NCBI RefSeq assembly: GCF_041886205.1
Contig: NZ_CP169029.1
DNA: 64,000 bases
Reading direction: 5' to 3' (one strand)
Source of the DNA: Escherichia coli
GTDB taxonomy: Bacteria; Pseudomonadota; Gammaproteobacteria; Enterobacterales; Enterobacteriaceae
Shown here: positions 19,402 through 42,603 of the stretch, piece after piece
Numbering within the stretch: the first letter of the stretch is position 1
How the letters are laid out: each line of letters starts with the position of its first letter
Translations under genes and position numbers: made by a program
The notes under the pieces: generated by a model
Told to the model about the DNA's origin: nothing
Databases searched by the model: none
What the model saw: only the letters and a program-made list of their open reading frames with translations

Positions 19402-19966
19402 ACGTTTTATGCGTAACGAACATAAAGCAGTAGAAGAGGTTATTGATTCCCCCCTTTCGGAAGTCGCGAATTTAATTAAAATATTACAATCTTGCCAGGG
19501 AAAAGTTGTTTTTATTGGTGTTGGGAAATCTGGCATTATTGCCAGAAAACTTGCTGCAACATTTGCCAGCACCGGAACTCCCTCGTTTTTTGTTCACGGT
19601 ACGGAAGCGGTACACGGCGACCTTGGGATGGTGGCGAAAGACGATGTTGTTATTCTTATTTCAAACAGTGGTGAGACGGCGGAAATCCTGGCGACACTGC
19701 CTAGTTTGAAAAAAATGGGTAATTATTTGATCTCTTTTACCCGCAGTCATCACTCATCGCTTGCGATAAGTTGTGATTTATCTGTTGAAATCCCCGTCAA
19801 AAGTGAGGCGGATAATTTAGGTTTAGCACCGTCATGCTCGTCTACTGTTGTTCTGGTTGTTGGTGATGCGGTGGCGCTTGCACTCTCTGAATTGAAAAAA
19901 TTTACTCGTGCTGATTTCGGCTTATATCATCCAGGAGGTGCACTCGGCATTAAAGCAAATTCATAA
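19370..19966 (+). CDS. single SIS-domain sugar-phosphate isomerase, KpsF/GutQ-like but lacking CBS domains (198 aa)
   Basis: VVFIGVGKSGIIARKLAATFASTGTPSFFVHGTEAVHGDLGMV...ILISNSGET matches the arabinose-5-phosphate isomerase SIS domain; overlaps the preceding gene by about 30 nt. Confidence 0.8.
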   Translation: MNNTDLIHLIKRFMRNEHKAVEEVIDSPLSEVANLIKILQSCQGKVVFIGVGKSGIIARKLAATFASTGTPSFFVHGTEAVHGDLGMVAKDDVVILISNSGETAEILATLPSLKKMGNYLISFTRSHHSSLAISCDLSVEIPVKSEADNLGLAPSCSSTVVLVVGDAVALALSELKKFTRADFGLYHPGGALGIKANS

Positions 19967-20037
19967 TTTCAAAGTATAAATACAGTAACCGGTCACGCCA
20001 TCTTTTGGGGTGGCGTTCATTGAAGTGAGTGTCAGCT

Positions 20038-20985
20038 ATGAAAAATGTTCTGGTCACCGTCCCCAACTTTTCAGCACGCTGTGTTTCCGCCAGCAAGTTG
20101 CTAAGAGAGAATAATTTTAATCTTATTATTAAGAATAATGTGGAGCATCTGCTTAAATCAGAATCCACTGCATTACGAGAATCTATTTGCGCGGTCATCG
20201 CCGGAAAAGATTGTTATCAGGCGGACACGCTATCATTGCTGCCTGGTGTGAAAATAATATCAAGATTCGGGACGGGGATAGATAATATTGATCTTCGTGC
20301 AGCACAACAATCCGGTATTGTAGTCAATAATGCGGTTGGGATTAATTCAAATGCTGTCGCGGAATTTATCATTGGACTTATCTTCGCGAGCATGAGAAAT
20401 ATTCCAGGCAGCTATCATGCGATGCAAAATGGCTACTGGGGTGAGTCGCATGGCTATGAATTACAAGGCAAACGGATTGGCATGGTTGGCTACGGCAATA
20501 TAGGTAAAACCCTGGCAAAAAGGTTATCCGGTTTTGATGTTGAGCTTTTAGCTTATGACAAACAACCCGATTATCAGGTTGCTGACAAAGTTGGAGTTCA
20601 GTTTGTATCAATTGAAGATATCTTTATGCAGTCGCATGTCATCATTGTTCTTTTGCCTTTTTCTCCTGAGCTGGAGAACTTCATTAGTCATAAATATTTG
20701 TCGATGATGCGCAATGGTGCTCTAATCATCAATGCCGCAAGGGGAAAGTTGCTGGATGAGGGCGCTTTACTACAGGTGATTGAAGAACGAAATGTGTTTG
20801 CGGCGCTGGATGTGTTTAGCTCTGAACCGTTGGCGCAATTTAGCCCACTGCTACATGCCAAAAATATCATTACAACGCCGCATATTGCGGCCGCCACCGT
20901 TGAGTCATACCAGCAAACCGGTACACACGTTGCCCAGTCGATAATTGATTACTTCGCAGGAAGGGAGATAAAAAACGTGTTGTGA
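20038..20985 (+). CDS. D-isomer-specific 2-hydroxyacid dehydrogenase family NAD-binding protein (~315 aa)
   Basis: Rossmann motif GKRIGMVGYGNIGKTLAKRL and the family pattern ...LLPFSPELENFIS...; ATG 20038 preferred over the GTG at 20029 (uncertain). Confidence 0.8.
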   Translation: MKNVLVTVPNFSARCVSASKLLRENNFNLIIKNNVEHLLKSESTALRESICAVIAGKDCYQADTLSLLPGVKIISRFGTGIDNIDLRAAQQSGIVVNNAVGINSNAVAEFIIGLIFASMRNIPGSYHAMQNGYWGESHGYELQGKRIGMVGYGNIGKTLAKRLSGFDVELLAYDKQPDYQVADKVGVQFVSIEDIFMQSHVIIVLLPFSPELENFISHKYLSMMRNGALIINAARGKLLDEGALLQVIEERNVFAALDVFSSEPLAQFSPLLHAKNIITTPHIAAATVESYQQTGTHVAQSIIDYFAGREIKNVL

Positions 20986-26952: not shown

Positions 26953-27348
26953 ATGACCAGCCGTTTTATGCTGATTTTCGCCGCCATTAGCGGCTTCATT
27001 TTTGTGGCTCTGGGCGCTTTTGGCGCGCATGTGTTAAGTAAAACCATGGGGGCCGTTGAGATGGGCTGGATCCAGACCGGCCTCGAATACCAGGCGTTTC
27101 ATACGCTGGCGATCTTAGGTCTGGCGGTGGCAATGCAGCGTCGCATCAGTATCTGGTTTTACTGGAGTAGCGTTTTCCTCGCGTTAGGCACGGTGTTATT
27201 CAGCGGCAGCCTTTATTGCCTGGCGCTGTCCCATCTGCGTTTGTGGGCGTTTGTCACTCCGGTTGGCGGCGTGAGCTTCCTCGCGGGCTGGGCGTTAATG
27301 TTAGTTGGTGCTATCCGTTTAAAGCGCAAGGGCGTAAGTCATGAATAA
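26953..27348 (+). CDS. ygdD: DUF423 inner membrane protein YgdD (131 aa)
   Basis: 131 aa hydrophobic protein between gcvA and rlmM. Confidence 0.88.
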
Positions 27349-28441
27349 GGTTGTATTGCTGTGCCGTCCGGGCTTTGAAAAAGAGTGCGCCGCAGAAATT
27401 ACCGATAAAGCCGGCCAGCGGGAAATTTTCGGTTTTGCCCGCGTGAAAGAGAATGCGGGTTATGTCATTTATGAATGTTATCAACCTGATGATGGCGATA
27501 AGTTAATCCGTGAGCTGCCGTTCAGTTCATTAATTTTTGCCCGCCAGTGGTTTGTGGTGGGGGAACTCCTGCAGCACTTGCCGCCAGAAGATCGTATTAC
27601 CCCCATTGTCGGCATGTTACAGGGCGTAGTAGAGAAGGGCGGTGAACTGCGTGTTGAAGTTGCCGATACCAACGAAAGCAAAGAGTTGCTGAAATTCTGC
27701 CGTAAATTTACTGTTCCGCTACGCGCTGCCTTGCGCGATGCCGGGGTGCTGGCGAACTATGAAACGCCGAAGCGTCCGGTTGTGCATGTATTCTTTATTG
27801 CACCAGGCTGCTGCTATACCGGTTACTCATACAGCAACAATAATTCGCCGTTCTATATGGGCATTCCGCGCCTGAAATTTCCGGCAGATGCGCCGAGTCG
27901 TTCCACGCTCAAACTGGAAGAGGCATTTCATGTGTTTATTCCTGCGGATGAGTGGGATGAACGCCTGGCGAACGGGATGTGGGCGGTGGATTTAGGCGCT
28001 TGCCCTGGCGGCTGGACCTACCAACTGGTGAAGCGCAACATGTGGGTTTATTCCGTCGACAACGGCCCGATGGCGCAAAGTCTGATGGATACCGGACAGG
28101 TGACGTGGCTGCGGGAAGACGGTTTCAAATTCCGTCCGACGCGCAGCAATATCTCCTGGATGGTATGCGATATGGTTGAAAAACCGGCGAAAGTTGCGGC
28201 ATTGATGGCGCAGTGGCTGGTTAATGGCTGGTGTCGTGAAACCATTTTCAACCTCAAACTGCCGATGAAAAAACGCTACGAAGAAGTGTCACACAATCTG
28301 GCGTATATTCAGGCACAGCTTGATGAACATGGCATAAATGCTCAGATTCAGGCGCGGCAGTTGTATCACGATCGCGAAGAAGTGACGGTGCACGTCCGCC
28401 GCATCTGGGCTGCGGTGGGTGGTCGTCGCGACGAGCGATAA
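27341..28441 (+). CDS. rlmM: 23S rRNA (cytidine2498-2'-O)-methyltransferase RlmM (366 aa)
   Basis: 366 aa; N-terminus [20 protein letters not shown]; overlaps the ygdD stop. Confidence 0.93.
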
Positions 28442-28484: not shown

Positions 28485-29216
28485 TCAGGCTGTTACCAAA
28501 GAAGTTGCAACCTGGCGCTCATCAGAAATAATGTGCGTTACCTCATCCAGATGCCCGATGCGGGCTTCCCCTGAACGATTAAATTTACTTTTATCAATCA
28601 ATAACAACGATTGCGCGGCACGTTTTAATAGCATCGATTTGTAATCAGCGTTGATGGCATTGGAGTCCCACAGTGCGCCGCTGCTATCGATCCCTTCACA
28701 AGAAAAAATAAACAGATCGATTTCCAGCGATTTAAGTTGGGAAATCAGCGAGGGATTGACGTAACAGCCATATTTGCGCTCAAGTGTGCCGCCGGAACTG
28801 ATCAGTTGAATGCGTTCGCGTTTACCGAGTTCATGGCAAATCGGATGGCTATTGGTGAAGACCTGAATGTTGATGTCAGGCAACTGGCGTGCCAGATACC
28901 AGCAAGTTGAACTGGCGTCTAAGGCTATCACCATCCCTTCTTCAATCCACGCGAGCGCCTCGCGCGCGATATCTGCTTTATGCGCATAATGGCTTTTCAG
29001 CCGGATGTGAAAGGGATCGCCACTGTCTTGATTTTGACGGTGGATATATTTAGCGCGTCCATGATTGCGCAGAATTTTACCCTGCGTCTGTAATTCATTG
29101 AGATCGCGACGAATGGTTTCTTTACTGACCTTTAGCTGTTCAGAGAGAGCTTCCGTGGTCAGGCTGGTATGGTTCAGCAGCAGGTCGACTATCGCTTGCT
29201 GGCGTGCCGCTTTCAT
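28485..29216 (-). CDS. fucR: L-fucose operon activator FucR (DeoR family, 243 aa)
   Basis: ATG at 29214-29216 gives MKAARQQAIVDLLLNHTSLTTEALSEQLKVSKETIRRDLNEL, a DeoR-type HTH. Confidence 0.94.
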   Translation of the reverse strand: MKAARQQAIVDLLLNHTSLTTEALSEQLKVSKETIRRDLNELQTQGKILRNHGRAKYIHRQNQDSGDPFHIRLKSHYAHKADIAREALAWIEEGMVIALDASSTCWYLARQLPDINIQVFTNSHPICHELGKRERIQLISSGGTLERKYGCYVNPSLISQLKSLEIDLFIFSCEGIDSSGALWDSNAINADYKSMLLKRAAQSLLLIDKSKFNRSGEARIGHLDEVTHIISDERQVATSLVTA

Positions 29217-29273: not shown

Positions 29274-29696
29274 TTACGGTGTTACCCCTTTTTTTAAAAG
29301 AATATTCCCGTACTTCGCTCGTTCGCCTGTGATAACGATCGCAAAGGCTTTTTGCGCCCGTTCATAAAACGCAAAACGATTGATGCGGATGATGTCAGGA
29401 CACGGGGCTTGTAGTGAAAGCGCATTACGGTAACGTCGTTCTACTTCAGGATCGAGAGTATCACCTTCTACCGCTGCCATCATCACCAGCGGCGGTGCAT
29501 AACTGTCCAGTTCAAATAACGGGATAATCGCCTGGAGCAAGTCGCTCACCAACAGGCCATCAGCGCGGATCACCTGCGGTCCCATCGAATGGGCGGGAAA
29601 GTGAGCATCGGAAAAAATAATTTCATCTCCATGTCCCATCTCTGCCAGCACTTTCAATAGTTCGGGAGAAATTAACGGCGAAATTGTTTTCAGCAT
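29274..29696 (-). CDS. fucU: L-fucose mutarotase FucU (RbsD/FucU family, 140 aa)
   Basis: 140 aa; N-terminus [35 protein letters not shown]. Confidence 0.94.
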
Positions 29697-29697
29697 T

Positions 29698-31116
29698 TCA
29701 CACTTCCTCTATAAATTCAGGTTCAGTTTGCGGGTAGAAATAACGGTACTGATAATGAATCTGTGCACGGGCTTCTTCCGGGCTGTTAAATTCCCCTACG
29801 CCATACCAACCGAACAGCGCAGCTCCTGCGACGGTCGTTTCGGCATCGTCGAGAACTTTTACCGGAATATCAAGCATATTGGCTTTAATCTGATTCCACA
29901 ATGTGTTGCGACTTCCTCCGCCGACTAACAATAATTCAGAGGCTTTAAAGTGCCCGATTTTTTCCAGCATCTGTAGATTGCGCTGTAATTGCGCGGTTAA
30001 CCCTTCCAGCGCCGCGCGATAGAAATGCCCCCGCGTAGTATTAAGCGTCACTCCTTGCCAGCCAGCGTTCTGACACGACAATAAATCACACTGCATTTTC
30101 ACGCCATCCGCGCCAGGTGCGATCAGACGAGCTTCTTCAATCAACATTTGCCAGGGTGTTTCAGCCGTCCAGAACAGTTTTCTCACCCATTCCAGCACGC
30201 CGGATGCCAGCCATTGCATACCTGGGTTATACAACCCTGCCTGGCTATCCAGTTCGCAGGTGGAACCGGCGTACTGACTTAACAGCGAAGTATCAACCTG
30301 GGCGCTACGGACCATTAAAATTTCCCATGTACCGGAGGAGAGCACTGGTTCATTTTGTTCGGCACCAGCGCCAAAAAGGGCGAACTGGGTATCGTGACCT
30401 GCGGAAATCACCGGTATGCCAACGGGTAAGCCGAGCATTGCTGCGGCGCTGTTCTGTAGCGTACCAATCTGTTCACCCGCTTCCACCAGACGAGGGAAGA
30501 GTCGGCATGGAATACCGGTGGCTTGTAAAATTTGCGGACTGAAATCGCGTTGCTGGATATCCAGCATCTGGCTGGTTCCGGCCATCGTGATATCAGTAGT
30601 GAATTCGCCGGTTAAACGGTGGTTAATCAGCGACGAAATGAAGAGCCAGGCGTGCGCGCGTTCCAGCAGTTGTGGATGATTTTCTTTCAACCACACCAAC
30701 TTATATAACGTATTGAAACTAAAGGCTCCGACGCCAGAAATAGCCTGCAACCGCTGTGCGGAGATTAACCGTTTAATATTGTCCATAACCGCTGCTGTTC
30801 GCGGACATTTCCAGCTAATGATCGGATAGAGCAGATTGCCTTGCTTATCTACCAGAGCGCCATCCACACCAAAGGTGGTGACGGCGATACCGCGGATGTG
30901 GCATTCAGTCAGTTCACTATTGATTTGCCGACAGCAATCAGCAAAGCGTTGCAAAATGGCGTCTAAAGACCACTGGTGCCAGGTGTTGTTTTCCATCGCG
31001 ATATCGCTGGCATTAGGCGTTGAGGCGCGGGCAACAATTTTTCCCTGCCGATTAACCGCGATGGCCCTGACATTGGTCGCGCCACAGTCGAGTACCAGGA
31101 TAACTTCTTGTTTCAT
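29698..31116 (-). CDS. fucK: L-fuculokinase FucK (FGGY family, 472 aa)
   Basis: ATG at 31114-31116 with RBS aggag gives [21 protein letters not shown]; an alternative upstream start at 31146 would give 482 aa. Confidence 0.93.
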
Positions 31117-31224: not shown

Positions 31225-33000
31225 TTAACGCTTGTACAACGGACCGTAGTTCTGGCAAGCGCGGTAATCCTGGCCTTCAATATCCATGCCGTGCGCAGCC
31301 CAGGCAGAAGGACGATACACTTTGGTCTCTTCAACGTTGTGCATACATACCGGGATACGCAGCATGGAGGCGAGAGTGATAAAGTCTGCGCCAACGTGGC
31401 CGATGGTCAGAACCCCATGGTTAGCGCCCCAGTTCGCCATTACCGAGTACACATCCGTAAACGGCCCTTTACCGGTGAGGCGCGGTGCAAACCAGGTGGT
31501 TGGCCAGGTTGAGTTGGTGCGTTTGTTGAGGATGTCATGCACATCCTTCGGCAATTCCACGCTCCAGCCTTCCGCGATTTGCAGTACCGGTCCCAGGCCT
31601 TTGATGATATTGACACGGGTCATGGTGAACGGGACGCCGCCTTCGGTAAGGAAGCGGGAAGAGTAACCGCCGCCACGGAAGTATTCGTGGATCGCCGGGC
31701 ACCATTCGGTAGCGGCGAGGCAAGCGTCAGCCTCTTGCTGAGAGATTTTCCAGTGCGGCTTCATCGTCGGGTTACCTTCGCTGTCGCGTTGTTTACAGGA
31801 ACCGTCCAGCGCAGCAGAACCTGAGTTGATCAAATGGATGATGCCGTGTTCTGCCAGTCCGTCGAGTTTATGCCCCGTTACACGCTCAATTGCTTCTGGT
31901 GACCAGTAGGTACGCACATCGGCAAATACCTGAGCGGTGCCGGTGAGCTGGTGACCCATTAGCATTGCCACGCCGTTAAGACTGTCGTTTTCGGTCGCCA
32001 CGACAAAGGGTTCGCGCACGCCATTCCAGTCAAATGAACTGTTGAGGATCGCTTCGGCAGTGTCACCATTGGGATATTGATCGGTCCAGTGGCGTTGTCC
32101 CTGGAAGCCCGCAGCGATGGCGTTGTAGCCAAGTGATTCTTCCACGCGACCAATATCGGCCAGTTTGCTGTTGCCTTGCATCATGTCGCGGATACACATC
32201 GCCATCAGTAAACTTTCGCGCAGAACTGCGCGGCTTTGCTCGGCATTGCGTTGATACTGTTTGTTATTTTCATCTTCGCCGTAGCGGAAGTTTTTATCAG
32301 CCCAGGCCAGCGCCATTTCCAGTTCGGCTTCGTCGTAAATCTTCTGATCGATACGGCGACGCAGTTCGGTCATATCCACCGCCTGGACTTTCATTCCCAG
32401 CCAGGATTCAAAGAAGTTGTGATCAACGATGGAACCAGCGATACCCATCGAAACGCCGCCCAGCGACAGATAGCTTTTACCTTTCATGCTGGCGACTGCC
32501 AAACCGGCGCGGGCAAAGCGCAGCAGTTTTTCTTCAACATCGGCTGGAATCGATGTGTCATCGGCATCCTGAACGTCATGACCGTAAATGGAGAATGCCG
32601 GGATGCCTTTCTGGCTGTGAGCTGCCAGAGCCGCTGCCAGGTAAACAGCGCCGGGACGTTCAGTGCCGTTAAAGCCCCAAATGGCTTTCGGGCGGGTTGG
32701 ATCCATGTCGATGGTTTCACTGCCATAGCACCAGCAAGGCGTTACCGTAATGGTGAGGCCTACATTCTGGCTGCTGAATTTTTCTTCGCAAGCAGCGGCT
32801 TCAGCCATACCCGCGATACAGGTATCGGAAATGACACACTCGACGGCAGCTCCGCAGGCATGGCGCAGTTTCTCGGTCAGCAGTGTGGCCGTGGCTTTCG
32901 CCATATTCATTGTTTGTTCTTCAAGCGACTCACGAACACCCATGCGACGACCGTCAATAACCGGGCGGATACCAATTTTCGGTAACGTATTAATTTTCAT
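31225..33000 (-). CDS. fucI: L-fucose isomerase FucI (591 aa)
   Basis: 591 aa; N-terminus [34 protein letters not shown]; RBS gagga. Confidence 0.95.
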
Positions 33001-33082
33001 CAGGATTCCTCATCTCGCTTTATTGGCGCTCTGCTAAGGCGGAGAAAGGAAACCACCGAAGCAGTAGTATTGGTCATTATTT

Positions 33083-33098
33083 GCTAACTCGAGTTAGC
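33083..33098. promoter_or_regulatory. perfect 16-bp palindrome GCTAACTCGAGTTAGC (copy 1), candidate LacI-family operator, about 83 bp upstream of the fucI start
   Basis: Read directly from sequence; the central CG and the 16-bp twofold symmetry are typical of LacI/GalR-family operators. Confidence 0.55.
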
Positions 33099-33321
33099 TT
33101 AGGTTTGTAGGCTTTTTATGCACAACTTTTTTGTTGTTGAAATGTGAGGGGCTTCACGAGAAGTGGTTAAAATACGATCTCTGTCAAATTATTATTTAGC
33201 GGGAGAAAAATAAATTTTACGTATAATCATATGGTTATTAGATTTTAATGGTTATGCATCACAGTTTTAACTCAAATGATTTGGCTAATTTGTATACCTA
33301 AAATAGCTTTAAAAGGCGATC

Positions 33322-33337
33322 GCTAACTCGAGTTAGC
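33322..33337. promoter_or_regulatory. perfect 16-bp palindrome GCTAACTCGAGTTAGC (copy 2), candidate operator about 133 bp upstream of the ABC transporter ATG
   Basis: Identical to copy 1, 239 bp away; a consensus TATAAT hexamer lies at 33222-33227 on the plus strand between the two copies. Confidence 0.55.
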
Positions 33338-33469
33338 AAAATGCGAAGAATAGATTGATGCGATGAATATTTATTCAAAGGTTATTCGTATCACAGTGGA
33401 GATGGCTTTAGTAGCGACGTTTATGCCGTACTTCACATTTTCAGTTTCTGATTATTGAGGAAAGCTGCA

Positions 33470-34969
33470 ATGTCCGAAACATTTTTGCAAATGAAGCATA
33501 TCACCAAACGCTTTCCTGGAGTGTTGGCGCTTAATGACGTGCAATTTTCCCTACGCCGGGGCGAGGTTCATGCATTATTAGGTGAAAATGGTGCAGGAAA
33601 ATCTACCTTAATGAAAATTTTGTCGGGGGTTTATCAACCTGATGAAGGCGAAATAATTTTTGAAGATAAACCAGTCTCATTTTCTGATCCGTTAAGTGCG
33701 CAAAACGTAGGTATTACTATTATTCACCAGGAATTTAATTTATTTCCCGAGCTTACAGTAGAAGAAAATATTTTTATCGGCAGGGAGTTTTGTAAAAAAA
33801 ATCGCTGGCGTCTGGATGAAAAACAGCAACGCCAGGCGACGATTGAAATTTTGCAAAAATTAAATTTGGCGATCAAACCAGATACTCTGGTTGCCGACCT
33901 TACGGTAGCTCAGCAGCAGATGGTAGAAATTGCCAAGGCCATTTCAGTTAACGCCAGGATTCTCATTATGGATGAACCTACTGCGGCGTTAACAGAAACT
34001 GAAATTGAAAGCTTATTTCGCGTCACCCGGTTATTGAAAGAGCAGGGGACCGGCATTGTTTATATCTCCCACCGTCTGGAAGAGTTGGCGCTAATTGCCG
34101 ACCGTGCGACTGTAATGCGTGATGGTCAGTACATCAGCACGGTGGATTATGAGTGCGTAAAAATCAGCGATCTGATTGCCATGATGGTTGGTCGCGATTT
34201 AGGGAATATCTATCCCCGCCGCGAGGCCTTGCAGCAGCGGATTCCGGTTCTGGAGGTAAACGGACTGACGCGCAAAGGCGTCCTGAACGATATTAATTTT
34301 ACGCTTTATCGTGGCGAGATCCTCGGCTTTGCCGGACTGATGGGCGCGGGGCGTACTGAACTTGCGCGTGCGATTTTTGGTGCGGATTCTATTGACAGCG
34401 GAACGCTAAAATTAAATGGTAAGGAAACCGTTATTAAAGATATTTCGGATGCTATTCAGCAGGGAATTAGTTACCTGACGGAAGACCGCAAAAAAGAAGG
34501 GCTGGCGCTGAATTTATCTGTTGAACGAAATATTATGTTAGGAAACTACCCTGAATATTCCGATCGTTTTGGGAATGTCGATTCGCGTCGTTGCCAACAA
34601 ACCAGTGAGGAACAGGTAAAAGCGTTAAGGATTAAAACGCCAAATCTTGAACAGGCGGCATTAAATCTAAGTGGAGGAAACCAGCAGAAAATTATAATTG
34701 CACGTTGGGTGTGTAAAGATACTGATATTTTAATCTTCGATGAACCCACTCGCGGCATTGATGTTGGCGCCAAACTGGAAATCTATGAGTTAATGAATCG
34801 CCTGGTGGCAAAAGGGAAATCAATCATCATGATCTCCTCTGAATTGCCTGAGGTGTTAGGAATGTGCGACCGTATTTTAGTGATGCGCAGTGGTCGAATT
34901 ACCGGCGAACTTAGCGCAAAAGAAGCGACACAAGAAAAAATTATGCAATACGCGACGTTAGAGGATTAA
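33470..34969 (+). CDS. sugar ABC transporter ATP-binding protein with two fused ABC domains (CUT2 family, RbsA/MglA-like), ~499 aa
   Basis: ATG 33470 preferred over TTG 33455 (RBS gaggaaag); Walker A GENGAGKST, signature LSGGNQQK in the second half, and total length indicate a duplicated ABC ATPase. Confidence 0.9.
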   Translation: MSETFLQMKHITKRFPGVLALNDVQFSLRRGEVHALLGENGAGKSTLMKILSGVYQPDEGEIIFEDKPVSFSDPLSAQNVGITIIHQEFNLFPELTVEENIFIGREFCKKNRWRLDEKQQRQATIEILQKLNLAIKPDTLVADLTVAQQQMVEIAKAISVNARILIMDEPTAALTETEIESLFRVTRLLKEQGTGIVYISHRLEELALIADRATVMRDGQYISTVDYECVKISDLIAMMVGRDLGNIYPRREALQQRIPVLEVNGLTRKGVLNDINFTLYRGEILGFAGLMGAGRTELARAIFGADSIDSGTLKLNGKETVIKDISDAIQQGISYLTEDRKKEGLALNLSVERNIMLGNYPEYSDRFGNVDSRRCQQTSEEQVKALRIKTPNLEQAALNLSGGNQQKIIIARWVCKDTDILIFDEPTRGIDVGAKLEIYELMNRLVAKGKSIIMISSELPEVLGMCDRILVMRSGRITGELSAKEATQEKIMQYATLED

Positions 34970-34972
34970 ATT

Positions 34973-35956
34973 ATGACTATCTCTGTAACCTCTCCAGACA
35001 GTAATAATAAGAAAATAAAGATAAATAAAGAACTTTTGATGCGTCTTGCGCCTCTTTTTAGCTTAATTATATTAGTGCTGTTTTTTAGTTTCAGCTCTCC
35101 CTTTTTCTTTAATACCGAAAATATCATGACGATTGCTCTGCAAACGTCGGTTATCGGCATTATGGCCATTGGGGTAACTTTCGTCATTATTACCGCGGGC
35201 ATCGATCTTTCATTGGGCTCCGTGGTGGCTTTTTCTGGTGTCGCCGTGGGGATTTGCGCCACACTGGGCCTGCCGCTGCCAGTGTGTATTATTGCCGGTG
35301 TTTTAGCCGGTGGAATGTGCGGCTATGTGAATGGTTTGTTGGTCACTAAAATGACCATTCCACCATTTATCGCTACCTTGGGCCTGATGATGTCCGTCAG
35401 AGGTATCAATATGGTGATGACCGACGGGCGCGCCATCTATTTTGCCGATTACCCGATGTTCAAAACGCTCGCTCAGGGACGCTTATTTGATGTGCTGCCT
35501 TATCCTGTTTTCTACCTTGTCATTGTAGCGCTTGTCGGCGCTTACATCCTGAAGAAAACCGTCATTGGTCGCTATGTCTATGCCGTAGGCAGTAATGAAG
35601 TTGCTGCTCATCTTTCTGGTATTAAAGTTCAGCGCGTGAAAATTTTCGTCTATGCCTTCTGTGGATTATTAACGGGGATTGCAGGTGTCATTCTGGCATC
35701 TCGTCTCAACTCCGGACAACCGACGGTAGGTGTGGGTTATGAACTGGAAGCTATTGCCGCGGTAGTGATTGGCGGAACCAGCTTAATGGGCGGTATTGGC
35801 ACTATTGGCGGCACAATCATTGGCGCTTTCATTATGAGTGTACTGAAAAATGGCCTCAATTTAATGGGCGTCTCCCAGTTCTGGCAAATGGTCGCGATGG
35901 GCGTCGTTGTGGTCGCTGCCGTTTACCTCGATACATTACGCAAAAAGATTCGTTGA
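34973..35956 (+). CDS. sugar ABC transporter permease (RbsC/AraH-like, 327 aa)
   Basis: Polytopic membrane protein; ATG 4 nt after the ATPase stop with RBS gagga. Confidence 0.88.
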   Translation: MTISVTSPDSNNKKIKINKELLMRLAPLFSLIILVLFFSFSSPFFFNTENIMTIALQTSVIGIMAIGVTFVIITAGIDLSLGSVVAFSGVAVGICATLGLPLPVCIIAGVLAGGMCGYVNGLLVTKMTIPPFIATLGLMMSVRGINMVMTDGRAIYFADYPMFKTLAQGRLFDVLPYPVFYLVIVALVGAYILKKTVIGRYVYAVGSNEVAAHLSGIKVQRVKIFVYAFCGLLTGIAGVILASRLNSGQPTVGVGYELEAIAAVVIGGTSLMGGIGTIGGTIIGAFIMSVLKNGLNLMGVSQFWQMVAMGVVVVAAVYLDTLRKKIR

Positions 35957-36029
35957 CTTAGGCTCCCTGTTTTATCGGGAAACAACTGCCCTGACGTTAA
36001 GGGTGATTCACTCAGAACGGAGTACAACA

Positions 36030-36980
36030 ATGAAAACCAGGCATTTTATCTATGCGTTATCTCTGCTGGCTTGCGTAAGTTCCAGCGCACTGGCGAAGGA
36101 TTTAAATCTTCCGGTTGTTAGTAAAGGTTTCCAACATGAATTCTGGCAAACCGTAAAAATGGGGACTGAAGCTGCGGCTAAAGAGTTGGGGGATAAAACC
36201 AGCTATGTTGGCCCGGCTGATGAAACGCAAATAGCCGAGCAAATTCAGTTAGTCGAAAATGCGATGGCGCAGAAACCGAATGGCTTGCTTCTGGCAGCCC
36301 TCGACGCGAATGCGCTCGCCCCACTGGTAGAAACGGCAAATTCACGCGGTATCAAAGTGGTGACCTTTGATTCAGGCATCAATTCAGACATTCCGGTGAG
36401 TTTTGTCGCCACCAATAACCGTAAAGCAGGTGCTCAGGCAGCTGATGCCTTAGCCTCGCAGGTAAATAATAAAGGGAAAGTTGGGATTATCGCGCACGTT
36501 GCAGGAACATCTTCCGCTATTGAACGCTCGGAAGGCTTCATGGAGCGTATGAAAGAAAAATATCCTGACATTAAAGTCTTACCCGTTCAGTACAGCGATG
36601 GTGACCCGCAAAAAGCGATGGATAAAACTATCGATATGATTCAGGCCAATCCCGATCTTGCTGGGATCTATGGCACCAATGAAGGTTCAACGCTCGGGGT
36701 GGCGAATGCCATTGATAGCCAGAATCTGAAAGGTAAGGTGAAGGTCATTGGTTTTGATAGTACGGAAGCGATTATTAACTTCCTGAAGAACGGCGTCATT
36801 CAGGGCTTTGTTGTTCAGGATGCATACCAGATTGGCTATCAAGGGATCAAAACGTTGAACGCGGCCCTTTCGGGGCAAGCCGTTGAAAAAGAGATCGATA
36901 TTCCCGTGAAATTTGTTAATGCCGAGAATATTAACACGCCAGAAATCGACAAACTCCTGCACCCATTCGGTAAGAAATAA
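36030..36980 (+). CDS. periplasmic sugar-binding protein (RbsB-like, type I PBP fold), ~316 aa
   Basis: Internal ATG at 36030 gives MKTRHFIYALSLLACVSSSALA, a signal peptide; the track ORF upstream extension overlaps the permease and lacks signal-peptide character. Confidence 0.88.
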   Translation: MKTRHFIYALSLLACVSSSALAKDLNLPVVSKGFQHEFWQTVKMGTEAAAKELGDKTSYVGPADETQIAEQIQLVENAMAQKPNGLLLAALDANALAPLVETANSRGIKVVTFDSGINSDIPVSFVATNNRKAGAQAADALASQVNNKGKVGIIAHVAGTSSAIERSEGFMERMKEKYPDIKVLPVQYSDGDPQKAMDKTIDMIQANPDLAGIYGTNEGSTLGVANAIDSQNLKGKVKVIGFDSTEAIINFLKNGVIQGFVVQDAYQIGYQGIKTLNAALSGQAVEKEIDIPVKFVNAENINTPEIDKLLHPFGKK

Positions 36981-37032
36981 AAAATTGGGGATGAATTTTC
37001 ATCCCCGTTATCTCCAGCGTCAGGGAGGCTTT

Positions 37033-38613
37033 ATGCACAACGGTTATTTTCTCGGTGTCGATGTCGGATCGGCCAGTGTCAGGGCAGGCGTTTACAGTGC
37101 CAGTGGCCACAGGCTGGCATTCGCTACTGCGCCCGTCTCCCAGTTTCGCCCTGGCGGCGAGCGTGTCGAACAGTCTTCGGCAGAGATCTGGCAACAAGTT
37201 TGTAAAACGGTGAAAGAGGCGACAGCTTTGGCAGGCATCCCCATTTCCGCAATTCGCTCACTGGGTTTTGACGCTACCTGCTCGCTGGTTGTTCTTGATG
37301 AACAAGGCCAGGGTTTAGCGGTTTCGTCCGGTGGATCTGCGAATCACGACATTATTATGTGGATGGATCATCGTGCAACTGTCGAGACGGCGCAGATTAA
37401 CGCAATGAAGGATCCCGCATTGCGCTACGTTGGCGGCGAAGTGAGCGTCGAGATGGAGTTACCAAAGTTACGTTGGTTGAAGACGCATCTACCGCAAACC
37501 TGGCAGGCCGCTCATCGCTTTTTCGATCTGGCGGATTTTCTGGTCTGGAAAGCAACAGGGCGAGACGTCGCGGGATTATGCACGCTAACGTGTAAATGGA
37601 ATTATCTAGCTCATGAGCAACGCTTTAGCCATAGCTTACTGGAATCGATAGACCTGACCGATATGCTTGAAAGAATTCCTGCCAACATTCTTCCGCCTGG
37701 CGCTGCCGTGGGAACGTTAACCGCCACAGCTGCTGAAGAGTTAGGATTAACGACTAATGTTATCGTGGCCAGTGGCTTGATTGATGCCCATGCCGGTGGC
37801 GTGGCGCTGGCTGGCGCTCACCCATCAGGAACGCTGGCATTGATAAGCGGAACGTCGAACTGCCATATGCTGTGTAGTGAAAAAGAGATATTCACCCCTG
37901 GCGTCTGGGGGCCATACTGGTCGGCCATGTTGCCAAATTACTGGCTAACCGAAGGCGGGCAAAGCGCCGCAGGGGCGCTGGTGGAGTGGACGCTTCAGGA
38001 GTCAGGGGCAAGCGCAAATCTTTTTCACAAGGCGCAGCAACGCGGATGTCATCCGATTCAACTGATTAATGAATGGGTAGCAGCCCTTGAAGCTAACGAG
38101 TCAGAACCCACACGAAATTTACATGTGCTTGCCGATCATCACGGCAACCGTTCGCCACGAGCGCGGCCCGATGCCAGAGGCAGTGTTTATGGCTTAACAC
38201 TGGAGCGTGGTGAAAATCAGCTCGCGCGACTTTATCTTGCGACTTTACAGGCAATAGCCTTTGGCACCAGACATATTATTGAAACTCTGCGGGAAAATGG
38301 GCATACCATTACCCGATTAACATTATGTGGTGGTGCAACGCACAACCCTTTATGGCTACGCGAATATGCAGACGTGACAGGTTGCGATATCCACCTGATG
38401 CAAGAAGAAGATGCCGTTACGTTGGGCGCAGCAATTAGCGGCGCTGTTGCCAGCGGAGCATGGGGGGATTTTACATCTGCGTGTAAAGCAATGGTTGAAG
38501 CCGGAGAGATTATTCAGGTAAATCCACAACGCCGTGAATTTTTAGAGCGTAAATACCGGGTTTACCTGACGCTTTGGGAGCAACAACAGGCGGTTAACCA
38601 ACTGATGCAATAA
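37033..38613 (+). CDS. FGGY-family carbohydrate kinase, pentulose-kinase-like subgroup (~526 aa)
   Basis: Internal ATG at 37033 (RBS cagggagg) gives MHNGYFLGVDVGSASVRAGVY, the FGGY N-terminal motif; GTSNCHM motif mid-protein; the track ORF start at 36913 overlaps the binding-protein gene. Confidence 0.87.
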   Translation: MHNGYFLGVDVGSASVRAGVYSASGHRLAFATAPVSQFRPGGERVEQSSAEIWQQVCKTVKEATALAGIPISAIRSLGFDATCSLVVLDEQGQGLAVSSGGSANHDIIMWMDHRATVETAQINAMKDPALRYVGGEVSVEMELPKLRWLKTHLPQTWQAAHRFFDLADFLVWKATGRDVAGLCTLTCKWNYLAHEQRFSHSLLESIDLTDMLERIPANILPPGAAVGTLTATAAEELGLTTNVIVASGLIDAHAGGVALAGAHPSGTLALISGTSNCHMLCSEKEIFTPGVWGPYWSAMLPNYWLTEGGQSAAGALVEWTLQESGASANLFHKAQQRGCHPIQLINEWVAALEANESEPTRNLHVLADHHGNRSPRARPDARGSVYGLTLERGENQLARLYLATLQAIAFGTRHIIETLRENGHTITRLTLCGGATHNPLWLREYADVTGCDIHLMQEEDAVTLGAAISGAVASGAWGDFTSACKAMVEAGEIIQVNPQRREFLERKYRVYLTLWEQQQAVNQLMQ

Positions 38614-38677
38614 GACAAAAGTTGAAAATACTTTTATGATTGTGATTTGACGTCTGGATGTTAACTGGGAAATACCT

Positions 38678-39676
38678 ATGGCTAAAACAGTAGAGCAGAT
38701 AGCCAGCGACCTGAATTTATCGGTTACGACCGTGCGACTGGTGCTAAATGGAAAAGCGGAACAATATCGAATCAGCGTCAAAACCCAAACGCGTATCAAT
38801 GAATATGTTGAACGCTATGGTTATATCATTAATCATTCCGCTCGCAGCCTTAAGCTTAACAAAACTGATACATTAGGGTTGATTGTTCCCAACATATCCA
38901 ACGTCTTTTTTGCTACGCTGGCAGAAAAACTCGAACAACGCTGTCGACGTTCCGGATATCAACTTACAATCAGTTGCACTTATGATGATGTTGACTATGA
39001 AAATAAATTGACGAAAGCATTTATCGCACGAAATGTAGATGGTCTTTTTATTGTTCCTTCGACGCTGGAAAATCAGCAGCATCATTTACGCAAAATTCGT
39101 AAGCCCATGGTTTTACTCGATCGTGATTTTAAATATACCGATAACGCATTGGTAGAGAGTAATAATATTTCTGGCGGAGAAAAGCTGACGCAAAATATTC
39201 TTGAGGCCGGGCAGACTCCAGTATGGTTTTTGCTGGGAGATGCCGGTTTGCCGAGTATCAGCGATCGTCTGACAGGTTATTTGAATGCGTTGGCAAAAAA
39301 AGGGATTACCCATCGCGATTGGGTGCGGGAAGGTCCGGTAAATACTCCGGAAGGCGGCTATGTCATTATGGAAAAACTCATTGAAGAGCAGGGATGTCCG
39401 CAGGCATTTATCGCCTCGTCTTTGCCTGTGCTTGAAGGCGCTGTCCGCGCGATTCGCGACCGTCTTGGCGCTGTACCGCCAGAAATCAATATTGGCACTT
39501 TCGATGAACATCCTATGCTGGGATTTCTCGCCAACAATGTCTGGTCAATGCAGCAGGATGAAAATGCCTGGGCAGAAAAAGCGTTCGAAATGATGTTAAG
39601 CGCGATCGAAGAAAGACCAGTCAAAAAAACAGTTAAAGTAGAAATGAAATTAATTAAGCGCATAAGAAAAAAATAA
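38678..39676 (+). CDS. LacI/GalR-family transcriptional regulator (332 aa)
   Basis: N-terminal HTH region followed by a periplasmic-binding-protein-like sugar-binding fold (LGLIVPNISNVFFATLAEKLE). Confidence 0.88.
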   Translation: MAKTVEQIASDLNLSVTTVRLVLNGKAEQYRISVKTQTRINEYVERYGYIINHSARSLKLNKTDTLGLIVPNISNVFFATLAEKLEQRCRRSGYQLTISCTYDDVDYENKLTKAFIARNVDGLFIVPSTLENQQHHLRKIRKPMVLLDRDFKYTDNALVESNNISGGEKLTQNILEAGQTPVWFLLGDAGLPSISDRLTGYLNALAKKGITHRDWVREGPVNTPEGGYVIMEKLIEEQGCPQAFIASSLPVLEGAVRAIRDRLGAVPPEINIGTFDEHPMLGFLANNVWSMQQDENAWAEKAFEMMLSAIEERPVKKTVKVEMKLIKRIRKK

Positions 39677-39808
39677 TAATCGCCAAAAGATATCAGGCTA
39701 CTGAACAATGATATTCAGTGGCCTCCCCTTACTAAAAATAACCCCGTCTTCATTTGCGGTGCTGTTTTACGCAACAAGGCGAGCTGAAACTGTATCTGGA
39801 GAATAGAA

Positions 39809-40456
39809 ATGGAAAGAACACGTTTATCCCGTGAAATAATTGAAACCTGTCTGGAAATGACGCGCCTTGGGTTAAATCAGGGGACAGCGGGGAATGTCAG
39901 CACACGTTTTGAAAACGGCATGTTGATTACTCCCAGCGGTATTCCTTATGAAAGAATGACGGAGAATATGATTGTCTATGTTGATGGCAACGGCAAATAC
40001 GAAGAAGGTAAGATTCCTTCCAGCGAGTGGCGTTTCCATATGGCAGCCTATCAAAGCAGACCGGATGCCAACGCGGTTGTTCACAATCATGCCGTTCATT
40101 GCACGGCAGTTTCCATTCTTAACCGACCGATCCCCGCTATTCACTACATGATTGCGGCGGCGGGCGGTAATTCTATTCCTTGCGCGCCTTATGCGACCTT
40201 TGGAACACGTGAACTTTCTGAACATGTTGCGCTGGCTCTCAAAAATCGTAAGGCAACTTTGTTACAACATCATGGGCTTATCGCTTGTGAGGTGAATCTG
40301 GAAAAAGCGTTATGGCTGGCGCATGAAGTTGAAGTGCTGGCGCAACTTTACCTGACGACCCTGGCGATTACGGACCCGGTGCCAGTGCTGAGCGATGAAG
40401 AGATTGCCGTAGTGCTGGAGAAATTCAAAACCTATGGGTTACGGATTGAAGAGTAA
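39809..40456 (+). CDS. fucA: L-fuculose-phosphate aldolase (class II aldolase, 215 aa); N-terminal ~70 residues appear divergent from the K-12 allele
   Basis: 215 aa; residues from about 75 onward (SSEWRFHMAAYQSRPDANAVVHNHAVHCTAVSIL...KFKTYGLRIEE) match E. coli FucA as recalled; the N-terminal part carries many substitutions. Confidence 0.9.
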   Translation: MERTRLSREIIETCLEMTRLGLNQGTAGNVSTRFENGMLITPSGIPYERMTENMIVYVDGNGKYEEGKIPSSEWRFHMAAYQSRPDANAVVHNHAVHCTAVSILNRPIPAIHYMIAAAGGNSIPCAPYATFGTRELSEHVALALKNRKATLLQHHGLIACEVNLEKALWLAHEVEVLAQLYLTTLAITDPVPVLSDEEIAVVLEKFKTYGLRIEE

Positions 40457-40483
40457 TTTCGTAAAGCAACAAGGAGAAGGATG

Positions 40484-41632
40484 ATGGCTAACAGAATGAT
40501 TCTGAACGAAACGGCATGGTTTGGTCGGGGTGCTGTTGGGGCTTTAACCGATGAGGTGAAACGCCGTGGTTATCAGAAGGCGCTGATCGTCACCGATAAA
40601 ACGCTGGTGCAATGCGGCGTGGTGGCGAAAGTGACCGATAAGATGGATGCGGCAGGGCTGGCATGGGCGATTTACGACGGCGTAGTGCCCAACCCAACAA
40701 TTACTGTCGTCAAAGAAGGGCTCGGTGTATTCCAGAATAGCGGCGCGGATTACCTGATTGCTATTGGTGGTGGTTCTCCACAGGATACTTGTAAAGCGAT
40801 TGGTATTATCAGCAACAACCCGGAATTTGCCGATGTGCGTAGCCTGGAAGGACTTTCCCCGACCAATAAACCCAGTGTACCGATTCTGGCAATTCCCACC
40901 ACAGCAGGCACTGCGGCAGAAGTGACCATTAACTACGTGATCACTGACGAAGAAAAACGGCGCAAGTTTGTTTGCGTTGATCCGCATGATATCCCGCAGG
41001 TGGCGTTTATTGACGCTGACATGATGGATGGTATGCCTCCAGCGCTGAAAGCTGCGACGGGTGTCGATGCGCTCACTCATGCTATTGAGGGGTATATTAC
41101 CCGTGGCGCGTGGGCGCTAACCGATGCGCTGCACATTAAAGCGATTGAAATCATTGCTGGGGCGCTGCGAGGATCGGTTGCTGGTGATAAGGATGCCGGA
41201 GAAGAAATGGCGCTCGGGCAGTATGTTGCGGGTATGGGCTTCTCGAATGTTGGCTTAGGGTTGGTGCATGGTATGGCGCATCCACTGGGCGCGTTTTACA
41301 ACACTCCACACGGTGTTGCGAACGCCATCCTGTTACCGCATGTCATGCGCTATAACGCTGACTTTACCGGTGAGAAGTACCGCGATATCGCGCGCGTTAT
41401 GGGCGTGAAAGTGGAAGGTATGAGCCTGGAAGAGGCGCGTAATGCCGCTGTTGAAGCGGTGTTTGCTCTCAACCGTGATGTCGGTATTCCGCCACATTTG
41501 CGTGATGTTGGGGTACGCAAGGAAGACATTCCGGCACTGGCGCAGGCGGCACTGGATGATGTTTGTACCGGTGGCAACCCGCGTGAAGCAACGCTTGAGG
41601 ATATTGTAGAGCTTTACCATACCGCCTGGTAA
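40484..41632 (+). CDS. fucO: L-1,2-propanediol oxidoreductase / lactaldehyde reductase (iron-containing alcohol dehydrogenase, 382 aa)
   Basis: MANRMILNETAWFGRGAVGALTDEVKRRGYQKALIVTDK; RBS aaggaga; second of two adjacent ATGs preferred. Confidence 0.94.
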   Translation: MANRMILNETAWFGRGAVGALTDEVKRRGYQKALIVTDKTLVQCGVVAKVTDKMDAAGLAWAIYDGVVPNPTITVVKEGLGVFQNSGADYLIAIGGGSPQDTCKAIGIISNNPEFADVRSLEGLSPTNKPSVPILAIPTTAGTAAEVTINYVITDEEKRRKFVCVDPHDIPQVAFIDADMMDGMPPALKAATGVDALTHAIEGYITRGAWALTDALHIKAIEIIAGALRGSVAGDKDAGEEMALGQYVAGMGFSNVGLGLVHGMAHPLGAFYNTPHGVANAILLPHVMRYNADFTGEKYRDIARVMGVKVEGMSLEEARNAAVEAVFALNRDVGIPPHLRDVGVRKEDIPALAQAALDDVCTGGNPREATLEDIVELYHTAW

Positions 41633-41650
41633 ATGCGCTGATGTGATAAT

Positions 41651-41683
41651 GCCGGATACGACGCTAGCCGCGTCTTATCCGGC
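41651..41683. repeat. REP-like palindromic element (gccggatacgacg / cgtcttatccggc) downstream of fucO
   Basis: Read directly from sequence between convergent fucO and xni; matches the E. coli REP family pattern GCCGGATA...TATCCGGC. Confidence 0.6.
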
Positions 41684-41736
41684 ATATAAGTGCATTAAAT
41701 TCAATGTGTTGATAATCGTTTGCATACGGCACGTCG

Positions 41737-42603
<867 letters not shown>

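Follow-up and report, generated by a model that had tools for sequence, protein, structure and literature searches.

In Escherichia coli B, the D-ribulokinase DarK is needed for growth on D-arabinose (PMC12307932; PMC6150544; PMC3446290). The description of the enzyme is credited to Elsinghorst and Mortlock (1988, 1994), as cited in PMC12307932. The gene is ECD_02649 in BL21(DE3), and D-arabinose catabolism is assigned to darK in the metabolic models of BL21 (PMC6150544) and REL606 (PMC3446290). BL21(DE3) is D-arabinose-positive (PMC6150544), and REL606 is scored '++' on D-arabinose and '-' on L-fucose, the reverse of K-12 (PMC3446290). Phenotype-array data are not clean in this respect, as BL21(DE3) is also scored L-fucose-positive despite carrying fucA::IS1. 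DarK and the logic of its pathway are already known, from decades of literature and from genome-scale models of E. coli B. The link between the purified D-ribulokinase and this open reading frame (ORF) is based on map position and later papers, and we found no knockout of the darK ORF in the literature.

Three other systems bear on the locus described here. FucI acts on D-arabinose (PMC6452873; PMC3446290), and K-12 mutants use it in a FucK/FucA/FucO route via D-ribulose 1-phosphate in which the kinase is FucK (PMC6452873). In the ribitol operon of Klebsiella, the kinase RbtK (O52716), a characterized member of the subfamily discussed below, converts D-ribulose to D-ribulose 5-phosphate (PMC3245297) and is encoded beside a ribitol dehydrogenase and a polyol permease. 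The RblK/RblABCD system of Citrobacter rodentium places a CUT2-type ABC importer by a dedicated FGGY D-ribulokinase, as does the locus in question, but it differs in including a KpsF-like isomerase, in having no known regulator and in lying outside the fuc locus (Cottam 2025, PMC12307932). According to the same study, Rbl is absent from E. coli.

Gene content of the locus

The window, a 64,000-nt stretch of E. coli DNA, carries the kinase gene within the fuc locus, in the following arrangement.

29698-31116, minus strand: fucK, FGGY L-fuculokinase (TIGR02628, 842.6 bits)
31225-33000, minus strand: fucI, L-fucose/D-arabinose isomerase (TIGR01089, 1250 bits; pathway role from the literature)
33470-34969, plus strand: CUT2 ABC ATPase with two fused ABC domains (NCBIfam; RefSeq CDS boundaries)
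34973-35956, plus strand: ABC permease, RbsC/AraH-like, the sole permease gene (NCBIfam; BPD_transp_2 in the Gibbsiella orthologue)
36030-36980, plus strand: periplasmic sugar-binding protein with signal peptide MKTRHFIYALSLLACVSSSALA (NCBIfam)
36987-37006, plus strand: stable hairpin without U-tract between the binding-protein gene and darK (-19.6 kcal/mol, z = -2.9)
37033-38613, plus strand: darK, FGGY pentulose kinase (predicted D-ribulokinase), 526 aa, 57.0 kDa (profile, Pfam, identity to REL606)
38678-39676, plus strand: LacI-family regulator, nearest to the FruR/Cra type, under cutoff
39695-39724, plus strand: stable 11-bp hairpin without U-tract, 3' of the regulator gene (z = -3.5)
39809-40456, plus strand: fucA (TIGR01086, 426.7 bits, cutoff 400.25)
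40481-41632, plus strand: fucO (same locus)

An earlier note on this DNA had described an FGGY kinase of about 526 residues, with a GTSNCHM motif, as lying next to fucK and fucA, and had counted two FGGY kinases and a CUT2 transporter in the locus. Both counts agree with the map. The kinase does share a locus with fucK and fucA, but the LacI-family gene lies between darK and fucA, and three transporter genes and fucI separate darK from fucK.

The transporter has the make-up of a CUT2 importer, with an ATPase of two fused ABC domains, one RbsC-like permease and one type I periplasmic binding protein; in Pfam, an orthologous transporter matches ABC_tran twice, BPD_transp_2 and Peripla_BP_4. The best NCBIfam matches of the ATPase are RbsA, XylG and GguA-type models, all under their equivalog cutoffs, and the binding protein gives weak matches to AlsB, RbsB and RhaS, also under cutoff. 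The solved structures nearest to the binding protein are 4RXT (E = 1.4e-54) and 4WUT (E = 1.4e-51). The latter is a D-fucose complex, and the ligand of 4RXT is probably D-arabinose. A scan of 32500-40500 against Rfam (E <= 1) returned zero matches.

Family and probable pathway of the kinase

The darK ORF begins with ATG at 37033, preceded by AGGGAGG, and its stop codon ends at 38613. RefSeq annotates an identical coding sequence in LHM10-1, in a stretch that is 100% identical, and in REL606. Membership in the FGGY superfamily is established by the two Pfam domains, FGGY_N (PF00370, residues 5-255, 2.3e-26) and FGGY_C (PF02782, residues 269-473, 2e-48), and the GTSNCHM motif occupies residues 273-279. 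We assigned the subfamily from NCBIfam whole-protein scores against curated cutoffs, the type of profile classification that had been proposed as a check. Only the FGGY pentulose kinase model TIGR01315 was exceeded, with 531.4 bits against a cutoff of 408.7 and coverage of profile positions 2-539 of 541; all other equivalog models of FGGY kinases scored below cutoff. Specifically, DarK reached 277.5 bits on ribulokinase NF003154 (cutoff 428), 216 on L-ribulokinase TIGR01234 (cutoff 583) and 56.9 on L-fuculokinase TIGR02628 (cutoff 470.9), and XylB (160), GlpK (100), GntK (86) and AI-2 kinase (93 bits) were each far under cutoff. As had been suggested, the protein is thus nearer to the ribulokinases and pentulose kinases than to fuculokinase. 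A second fuculokinase is ruled out by the TIGR02628 score and by an identity of only 23% to the FucK of the window, and a glycerol or gluconate kinase by the GlpK and GntK scores.

Among characterized kinases, DarK falls in the same FGGY branch as RbtK, which derives from AraB-type kinases. DarK shares the FGGY fold of AraB (E. coli K-12; Bacillus halodurans 3QDK), and in an alignment with 3QDK, W110, K188 and E307 of DarK match the sugar-binding Trp, Lys and Glu, and D251 matches the catalytic Asp. It differs from AraB in its 28% identity to the K-12 protein, in falling below both ribulokinase cutoffs and in a gap at the Ala96-equivalent position. FucK shares superfamily and locus with DarK but makes ketose 1-phosphates. 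The closest solved structure, aligned over the full length (E = 2.9e-137), is PDB 3GG4/3L0Q, a structural-genomics FGGY kinase deposited as 'glycerol kinase / xylulose kinase'. Paralogues of about 60% identity to DarK occur in operons with DHDPS-family, BNR_2 and mandelate-racemase-family enzymes, and substrate specificity therefore appears not to be uniform across the subfamily.

The kinase of REL606 is 100% identical to that of the window by tblastn, and one RefSeq accession, WP_000551482.1, covers the kinases of REL606, BL21(DE3) and LHM10-1. The REL606 and BL21(DE3) loci also carry the same five-gene block with the kinase between fucI and fucA, so that neither sequence nor position distinguishes the window protein from the DarK of E. 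coli B. We consider it very likely that 37033-38613 is darK and encodes the D-ribulokinase of the L-fucose/D-arabinose locus found in E. coli B-type strains, acting in a route from D-arabinose through FucI to DarK. In this route D-arabinose would probably enter through the adjoining CUT2 importer, FucI would isomerize it to D-ribulose, and DarK would use ATP to phosphorylate D-ribulose, most likely at C5, a regiochemistry suggested by family members and by the fucA::IS1 strains. The product, D-ribulose 5-phosphate, would pass to the pentose phosphate pathway; it is not a FucA substrate, and FucK, FucA and FucO would be dispensable. As first stated, the finding is of very little importance, since the kinase is the known DarK.

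The earlier note had proposed instead a pathway that borrows FucA and FucO. In such a scheme the kinase would make a pentulose or deoxy-ketose 1-phosphate, which FucA would cleave to dihydroxyacetone phosphate (DHAP) and an aldehyde for reduction by FucO. The placement of fucA and fucO directly downstream of the block on the same strand fits this scheme, and in K-12 mutants D-ribulose 1-phosphate is indeed a substrate of FucA, but the mutant pathway depends on FucK and uses no second kinase (PMC6452873). DarK belongs to the AraB/RbtK branch, whose characterized members phosphorylate C5 (PMC3245297). Furthermore, IS1 splits fucA in both REL606 and BL21(DE3), and these strains still use D-arabinose; the borrowed enzyme appears to be FucI and not FucA. 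A locus in Chimaeribacter also argues against a role for the aldolase: it comprises fucI, the kinase, the LacI-family regulator, a GPH symporter and a DUF2961/GH172 protein, and no fucK, fucA, fucO or fucU was found in it. We regard the 1-phosphate scheme as very unlikely. The idea that a pentose pathway reuses a fuc enzyme holds up, and the choice of FucA and FucO as the enzymes reused was probably mistaken.

DarK and RbtK fall in one NCBIfam subfamily, and a ribitol locus of the RbtK type exists in some E. coli (PMC12307932), which could make DarK a kinase for D-ribulose released by a polyol dehydrogenase in ribitol or D-arabitol catabolism. However, neither the block nor its flanks hold a dehydrogenase or polyol permease gene, and the ribitol-linked kinases form a separate clade in Cottam 2025 (PMC12307932); we give this origin of the substrate almost no credence. 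Identity with the ribitol operon itself was rejected, as its partner genes are lacking in block and flanks. A distant blastn search of E. coli did not find a ribitol-type paralogue and matched another paralogue operon instead.

Replacement of fucP and distribution of the block

Alignment with K-12 defines the extent of the block and a mosaic in the adjoining gene.

33013-39829, no strand assigned: segment without K-12 homology, at about these limits (blastn against K-12)
39809-40030, plus strand: 5' third of a mosaic fucA, of the island haplotype (identity comparisons)

The segment holds five genes, for the ABC ATPase, permease, binding protein, DarK and LacI-family regulator, and stands in for 1903 bp of K-12 that comprise fucP, the promoters in the fucA/fucP intergenic region and 21 nt from the 5' end of fucA. 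The GC content of the five genes is 0.43-0.53, and that of the intergenic region 0.36. Sensitive blastn detected no K-12 regulatory DNA within the block; its weak K-12 matches were confined to ~90 nt at the start of fucA and a stretch just upstream of fucI. The 5' third of fucA is 74-76% identical to K-12 and 90% identical to E. whittamii, and identity to K-12 rises to 94-100% from about 40010 onward. The fucA of the window strain is intact, unlike fucA::IS1 of REL606 and BL21(DE3). Neither IS elements nor tRNAs nor flanking repeats were found at the block junctions, and the position of the junctions within fucI and fucA fits homologous replacement better than insertion.

Within the enterobacterial fuc locus, the block constitutes an alternative haplotype, in which fucP and the FucR-type promoter region have been replaced. 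Of 5426 complete E. coli genomes, 383 carry the block and 5039 carry fucP. The darK haplotype, without fucP, is present in about 7% of the complete genomes, which is relevant to the reading of fucose and D-arabinose phenotypes and to fucose-based studies of gut colonization. The order fucI, ABC genes, kinase, LacI gene, fucA is kept in E. whittamii, Citrobacter, Gibbsiella, Lelliottia, Huaxiibacter, Enterobacter, Atlantibacter and Affinibrenneria, although a LacI gene was not detected in the two Affinibrenneria loci. This syntenic layout in other genera, the Chimaeribacter fucI-kinase-regulator-GH172 locus and the recurring palindrome described below are what the present analysis adds.

The LacI-family regulator and its candidate operators

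The regulator combines a LacI-type helix-turn-helix with a periplasmic-binding-protein-like domain, and scores 235.8 bits on TIGR02417 against a cutoff of 389.6. Three candidate sites lie in the fucI/ABC intergenic region.

33083-33098, no strand assigned: candidate operator O1, perfect 16-bp palindrome GCTAACTCGAGTTAGC, 83 nt upstream of the fucI start codon
33143-33158, no strand assigned: CRP-like site TGTGAGGGGCTTCACG between O1 and O2; TGTGA and TCACG invariant in 12 loci from about 8 genera
33322-33337, no strand assigned: candidate operator O2, second and identical copy of the palindrome, at a distance of 239 bp from O1; ABC ATPase start codon 133 nt downstream

The palindrome, GCTAACT-CG-AGTTAGC, is centred on CG, and two matches were obtained in none of 100 shuffles of the window. 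Both copies are conserved in a footprint alignment of 12 loci; the site between them is attributed to CRP by its resemblance to the consensus. Among 80 related loci we counted 75 copies with at most two mismatches, against 0.33 expected, and at loci outside fuc most copies are found upstream of the kinase gene, at a distance of 27-106 nt. An orthologue of the regulator (44-97% identity) accompanies the kinase in 41 of the 80 loci. The palindrome is present in 35 of these 41 and in 14 of the 39 others (Fisher p = 8e-6, for loci that are phylogenetically non-independent). Judged from these sequence patterns, the palindrome is probably the operator of the LacI-family regulator, which would probably repress the divergent fucI and ABC-darK promoters from O1 and O2, on either side of the CRP-like site, in response to a putative effector.

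The occurrence of the regulator/operator pair with kinase homologues outside fuc loci also suits a module for scavenging D-ribulose, in which the importer takes up free D-ribulose for DarK and the use of D-arabinose through FucI is a side benefit of location. Rbl is likewise an ABC transporter with a dedicated FGGY D-ribulokinase, essential for growth on D-ribulose (PMC12307932). Nevertheless, across about 9 genera the block invariably adjoins fucI and takes the place of fucP; the partner of the kinase paralogues outside fuc is a protein with a weak match to Fucose_iso_C; and the Chimaeribacter kinase has both a true fucI and a GH172 D-arabinofuranosidase as partners. Rbl's KpsF-like isomerase has no counterpart in the block, and identity with the Rbl locus was rejected, as 33013-39829 holds a transporter and kinase but no SIS/KpsF gene. 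Scavenging of D-ribulose is therefore improbable as the primary role, although it involves the same kinase chemistry as the D-arabinose route and both could hold.

Returning to that route, we propose tentatively, with somewhat less than even confidence, that the block is an old alternative fuc haplotype that diverged in step with its flanking genes and not an acquisition of unknown origin by strain B. A CUT2 importer and a LacI-family repressor, the latter with two exactly conserved operators on either side of a CRP-like site, would have replaced FucP and the K-12 fucA/fucP promoters, giving a joint L-fucose/D-arabinose regulon, and the same repressor/operator pair would control isomerase-kinase modules in many Proteobacteria, one of them linked to GH172. 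Enzymes of GH172 are exo-D-arabinofuranosidases, and the D-arabinan proteome of D. gadei is dominated by a 'fucose isomerase'. If the proposal is correct, it suggests that the substrate comes in nature from D-arabinofuranosides, for instance actinobacterial arabinan or glycosylated pili. Our searches found no literature on D-arabinose that combined a LacI-family regulator, L-fucose isomerase, an ABC transporter and a D-ribulokinase. The substrate of the transporter, the regulator and the predicted operator are easily testable.

In RefSeq, DarK is still named 'FGGY-family carbohydrate kinase' and the neighbouring genes are also labelled generically, annotations that could now be upgraded.

Kinase class and identity with darK

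The window is E. coli chromosome, collinear with strain LHM10-1 at 99.4-99.6% identity, and at 100% across the island of five genes that separates fucI from fucA. The genes of this fuc locus, from which fucP is absent, are arranged as follows.

Genes of the fuc locus and its flanks
27341-28441, + strand, rlmM
28485-29216, - strand, fucR
29274-29696, - strand, fucU
29698-31116, - strand, fucK
31225-33000, - strand, fucI
33470-34969, + strand, ABC ATPase
34973-35956, + strand, permease
36030-36980, + strand, binding protein
37033-38613, + strand, kinase
38678-39676, + strand, LacI-family regulator
39809-40456, + strand, fucA
40481-41632, + strand, fucO
~41737-42492, - strand, xni

The kinase gene (37033-38613, + strand) starts with ATG, is preceded by AGGGAGG, and encodes 526 amino acids that are spanned by the Pfam domains FGGY_N and FGGY_C, with the GTSNCHM motif at residues 273-279. 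Among NCBIfam models, the protein exceeds the curated cutoff only for TIGR01315, 'FGGY family pentulose kinase' (531.4 bits, cutoff 408.7), and falls below the cutoffs of all other FGGY models.

Scores of the kinase against other FGGY models
Ribulokinase, 277.5 bits, cutoff 428
L-ribulokinase, 216 bits, cutoff 583
XylB, 160 bits, cutoff 380
GlpK, 100 bits, cutoff 590
GntK, 86 bits, cutoff 649
L-fuculokinase, 56.9 bits, cutoff 471

Pairwise identity is 23% with FucK of the same locus and 28% with K-12 AraB. The profile classification thus bears out the earlier note, which had read the protein as nearer to ribulokinases than to fuculokinase, and places it away from fuculokinase, glycerol kinase and gluconokinase. 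Residues W110, K188, D251 and E307 align with Trp126, Lys208, Asp274 and Glu329 of Bacillus halodurans AraB (3QDK), reportedly the sugar-binding residues of that enzyme, and the alignment has a gap where 3QDK carries Ala96. The same residue pattern is described for RblK by Cottam et al. (PMC12307932). The branch to which the kinase belongs descends from AraB-type kinases, and its characterized member, RbtK, converts D-ribulose to D-ribulose 5-phosphate (PMC3245297).

E. coli B REL606, BL21-type strains, E. coli C and ATCC 8739 share a 6.8-kb stretch (33001-39808) with the window at 99.9% identity, and among 5426 complete E. coli genomes 383 carry it, each as a single chromosomal copy. REL606 and BL21(DE3) carry the same five genes between fucI and fucA. 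The kinase of REL606 matches that of the window at 100% identity, and the kinases of REL606, BL21(DE3) and LHM10-1 share one RefSeq accession, WP_000551482.1. In a BL21(DE3) model, ECD_02649, located between fucA and fucI, is given the D-ribulokinase reaction of D-arabinose catabolism (PMC6150544). In Yoon et al. (2012), 'D-arabinose utilization' figures among the gene sets specific to B, and the model gains D-arabinose isomerase and D-ribulokinase reactions (PMC3446290); Elsinghorst and Mortlock (1994) is cited by Cottam et al. (PMC12307932). Because the REL606 protein is identical, the position between fucI and fucA is the same and the literature assigns the gene, the kinase is the already known DarK. 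The pentulose-kinase class and service in a pentose pathway proposed from sequence are upheld by the TIGR01315 score and by the darK literature.

In the window, a block of 6817 bp stands where K-12 has 1903 bp, which makes the locus 4.9 kb larger on balance. This agrees with the 1988 and 1994 papers of Elsinghorst and Mortlock, which reportedly describe the gene order fucA-darK-fucI-fucK and, in strain B, ~5.2 kb of additional DNA. Our additions to what is known of DarK are modest, and comprise the haplotype structure, synteny across genera and a predicted operator.

Structure and distribution of the haplotype

Homology to K-12 ends at 33012 and restarts at 39830. The first ~220 nt of fucA (39809-40030) share 74-76% identity with K-12 and 90% with Escherichia whittamii, the remainder of the gene is K-12-like (94-100%), and the first ~100 nt of fucI are likewise diverged from K-12. 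Therefore fucA is a mosaic, with both junctions falling within homologous genes. The ends of the block bear neither an IS element nor a tRNA or flanking repeat; it constitutes a haplotype rather than a simple insertion. The K-12 fucP gene occurs in 5039 of the 5426 genomes and the block in 383, and as these counts sum to 5422, the two forms look almost mutually exclusive, judged from genome totals.

The order fucU-fucK-fucI divergent from the ABC genes, binding protein, kinase, regulator, fucA and usually fucO is common to several genera. It is seen in E. whittamii, at least eight Citrobacter species representatives including C. youngae, Gibbsiella quercinecans, Lelliottia, Huaxiibacter, Enterobacter hormaechei subsp. 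hoffmannii, a divergent 'C. freundii', Atlantibacter and Affinibrenneria, with xni beside fucO only in Escherichia and Citrobacter. Affinibrenneria salicis scaffold 1 carries the whole locus twice (L018 and L019), ~150 kb apart in opposite orientation with identical match patterns; no regulator gene was detected between kinase and fucA in either, and palindrome copies are present. The DNA identity of the island genes to other species tracks that of flanking fucI and fucO (88-93% and 85-90%, respectively, against E. whittamii; 72-83% and 80-82% against Citrobacter), and there are two island allele classes within E. coli (>=99% and ~98.7%). These patterns suggest long residence in the lineage and not recent import from a distant donor.

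Strain BS-04 (L086, 7530-9717) has a shortened island of ~2.2 kb between fucI and fucA that lacks fucP and the ABC and darK genes, and keeps only a 143-amino-acid hypothetical ORF and a fragmented, 86%-identical remnant of the regulator region; it either derives from the full island by deletion or reflects an assembly problem. The fucO-xni gap of the window (41633-41736) exceeds that of K-12 by ~50 nt, aligns poorly with it (62% in the corresponding 100-nt bin) and may contain a small inserted repeat. At 15758-20985, between amiC and three tandem tRNA-Met genes, lies an accessory block of low GC (0.39-0.40). It encodes a PRD-domain antiterminator whose gene is frameshifted in the near-identical LHM10-1, a PTS EIIC, a MalY/PatB-family C-S lyase, a KpsF/GutQ-family sugar-phosphate isomerase and a phosphoglycerate-dehydrogenase-like protein; BL21(DE3) lacks it, and amiC there directly abuts the tRNA genes.

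Probable D-arabinose pathway and transporter

FucI doubles as a D-arabinose isomerase, and K-12 mutants use D-arabinose via FucI, FucK and FucA through D-ribulose 1-phosphate, a route less efficient than that through D-ribulose 5-phosphate (PMC6452873). The earlier note had proposed that the kinase pathway borrows FucA and FucO, a proposal that two observations speak against and that is probably wrong. In E. coli B, fucA is split by an IS1A insertion (13809-15233 of the REL606 locus L001 and 15631-17055 of the BL21(DE3) locus L088; the window fucA is intact), and REL606 nevertheless scores '++' on D-arabinose (PMC3446290), with BL21(DE3) also positive (PMC6150544). The Chimaeribacter californicus locus L017 has a true fucI (1088 bits) and, divergent from it, a kinase of 66% identity and a regulator of 64% identity; none of fucK, fucA, fucO and fucU lies in the vicinity. 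Together with the chemistry of RbtK, these point to D-arabinose most likely being isomerized by FucI to D-ribulose, which DarK would phosphorylate to D-ribulose 5-phosphate for entry into the pentose phosphate pathway.

The phenotype arrays are supportive of a FucA-independent route, not decisive, for BL21(DE3) is also L-fucose-positive despite fucA::IS1 (PMC6150544). REL606 is L-fucose-negative, which Yoon et al. ascribe to lost fucP transport (PMC3446290); the broken aldolase explains this equally well.

The ATPase, permease and binding protein resemble ribose, xylose, arabinose and allose systems, all below equivalog cutoffs. The nearest solved binding proteins are 4WUT, a D-fucose complex, and 4RXT, presumably a D-arabinose complex. 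Across genera the block always occupies the place of fucP while intact fucIKU and fucA(O) are kept, and therefore the importer most likely carries D-arabinose and probably L-fucose. The main alternative is D-ribulose, for whose import Rbl and Aau offer a precedent (PMC12307932); the BL21 model already assumes D-arabinose uptake by an ABC system (PMC6150544).

Candidate operators and related operons

A perfect 16-bp palindrome, GCTAACTCGAGTTAGC, occurs twice in the fucI/ABC intergenic region (O1, 33083-33098; O2, 33322-33337; spacing 239 bp), the flanks being mirrored (TTT and AAA); two matches arose in 0 of 100 shuffles of the window. Both are exactly kept in E. whittamii, seven Citrobacter loci and Gibbsiella, most other fuc-type loci have copies with 1-2 mismatches, and the C. 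freundii M-21 and Atlantibacter loci have only one within 2 mismatches. In a 12-locus footprint alignment, a CRP-like TGTGA-N6-TCACG (33143-33158) is invariant, and another conserved block lies upstream of O2. Across 80 related loci (1.26 Mb), 75 copies with <=2 mismatches were found (0.33 expected), and outside fuc loci most of them sit 27-106 nt upstream of the kinase. The palindrome is more frequent at loci whose fetched flank has a LacI orthologue than at the others (35/41 versus 14/39; Fisher p = 8e-6, which overstates independence because the loci are related). It is thus a predicted operator of the LacI-family regulator. There is no third copy before fucA. The K-12 fucA/fucP regulatory region is gone from the window, and FucR is kept, identical to K-12 over the aligned length. 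Stable hairpins without U-tracts follow the binding-protein and regulator genes, and an Rfam search of 32500-40500 (E <= 1) gave no family matches.

Kinase homologues of ~60% identity occur in other operons with the same palindrome. In Brenneria and an IS-flanked K. pneumoniae plasmid segment, the kinase accompanies a 548-552-amino-acid protein, which matches Fucose_iso_C weakly (2e-05) and has no PDB relative, a DHDPS-family protein, a BNR_2 protein, a transporter and a LacI regulator. Palindrome-bearing operons of this type, at L020 7968-17700 and on plasmid CP056276.1 (L083, 10001-17902), have MFS or tripartite transporters. A paralogue at ~65% DNA identity is present in 72 E. coli genomes without the island; at the sole locus examined, in strain C10 (L089, 6618-14406), it is followed by a 549-amino-acid protein annotated 'signal transduction protein', an MFS transporter, a mandelate-racemase-family enzyme, an SDR and a DHDPS-family protein. 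This operon also has a GlcG-like protein and adjoins IS630 and pseudogene debris.

The minimal Chimaeribacter regulon (L017, 5951-13626; palindromes at 7788 and 13609) also encodes a GPH symporter and a protein of DUF2961, which corresponds to the exo-alpha-D-arabinofuranosidase family GH172, and the locus looks like one for D-arabinofuranoside utilization. This linkage favours the view that D-arabinose is what the isomerase-kinase pair naturally acts on, and gives a hint of the source of the sugar.
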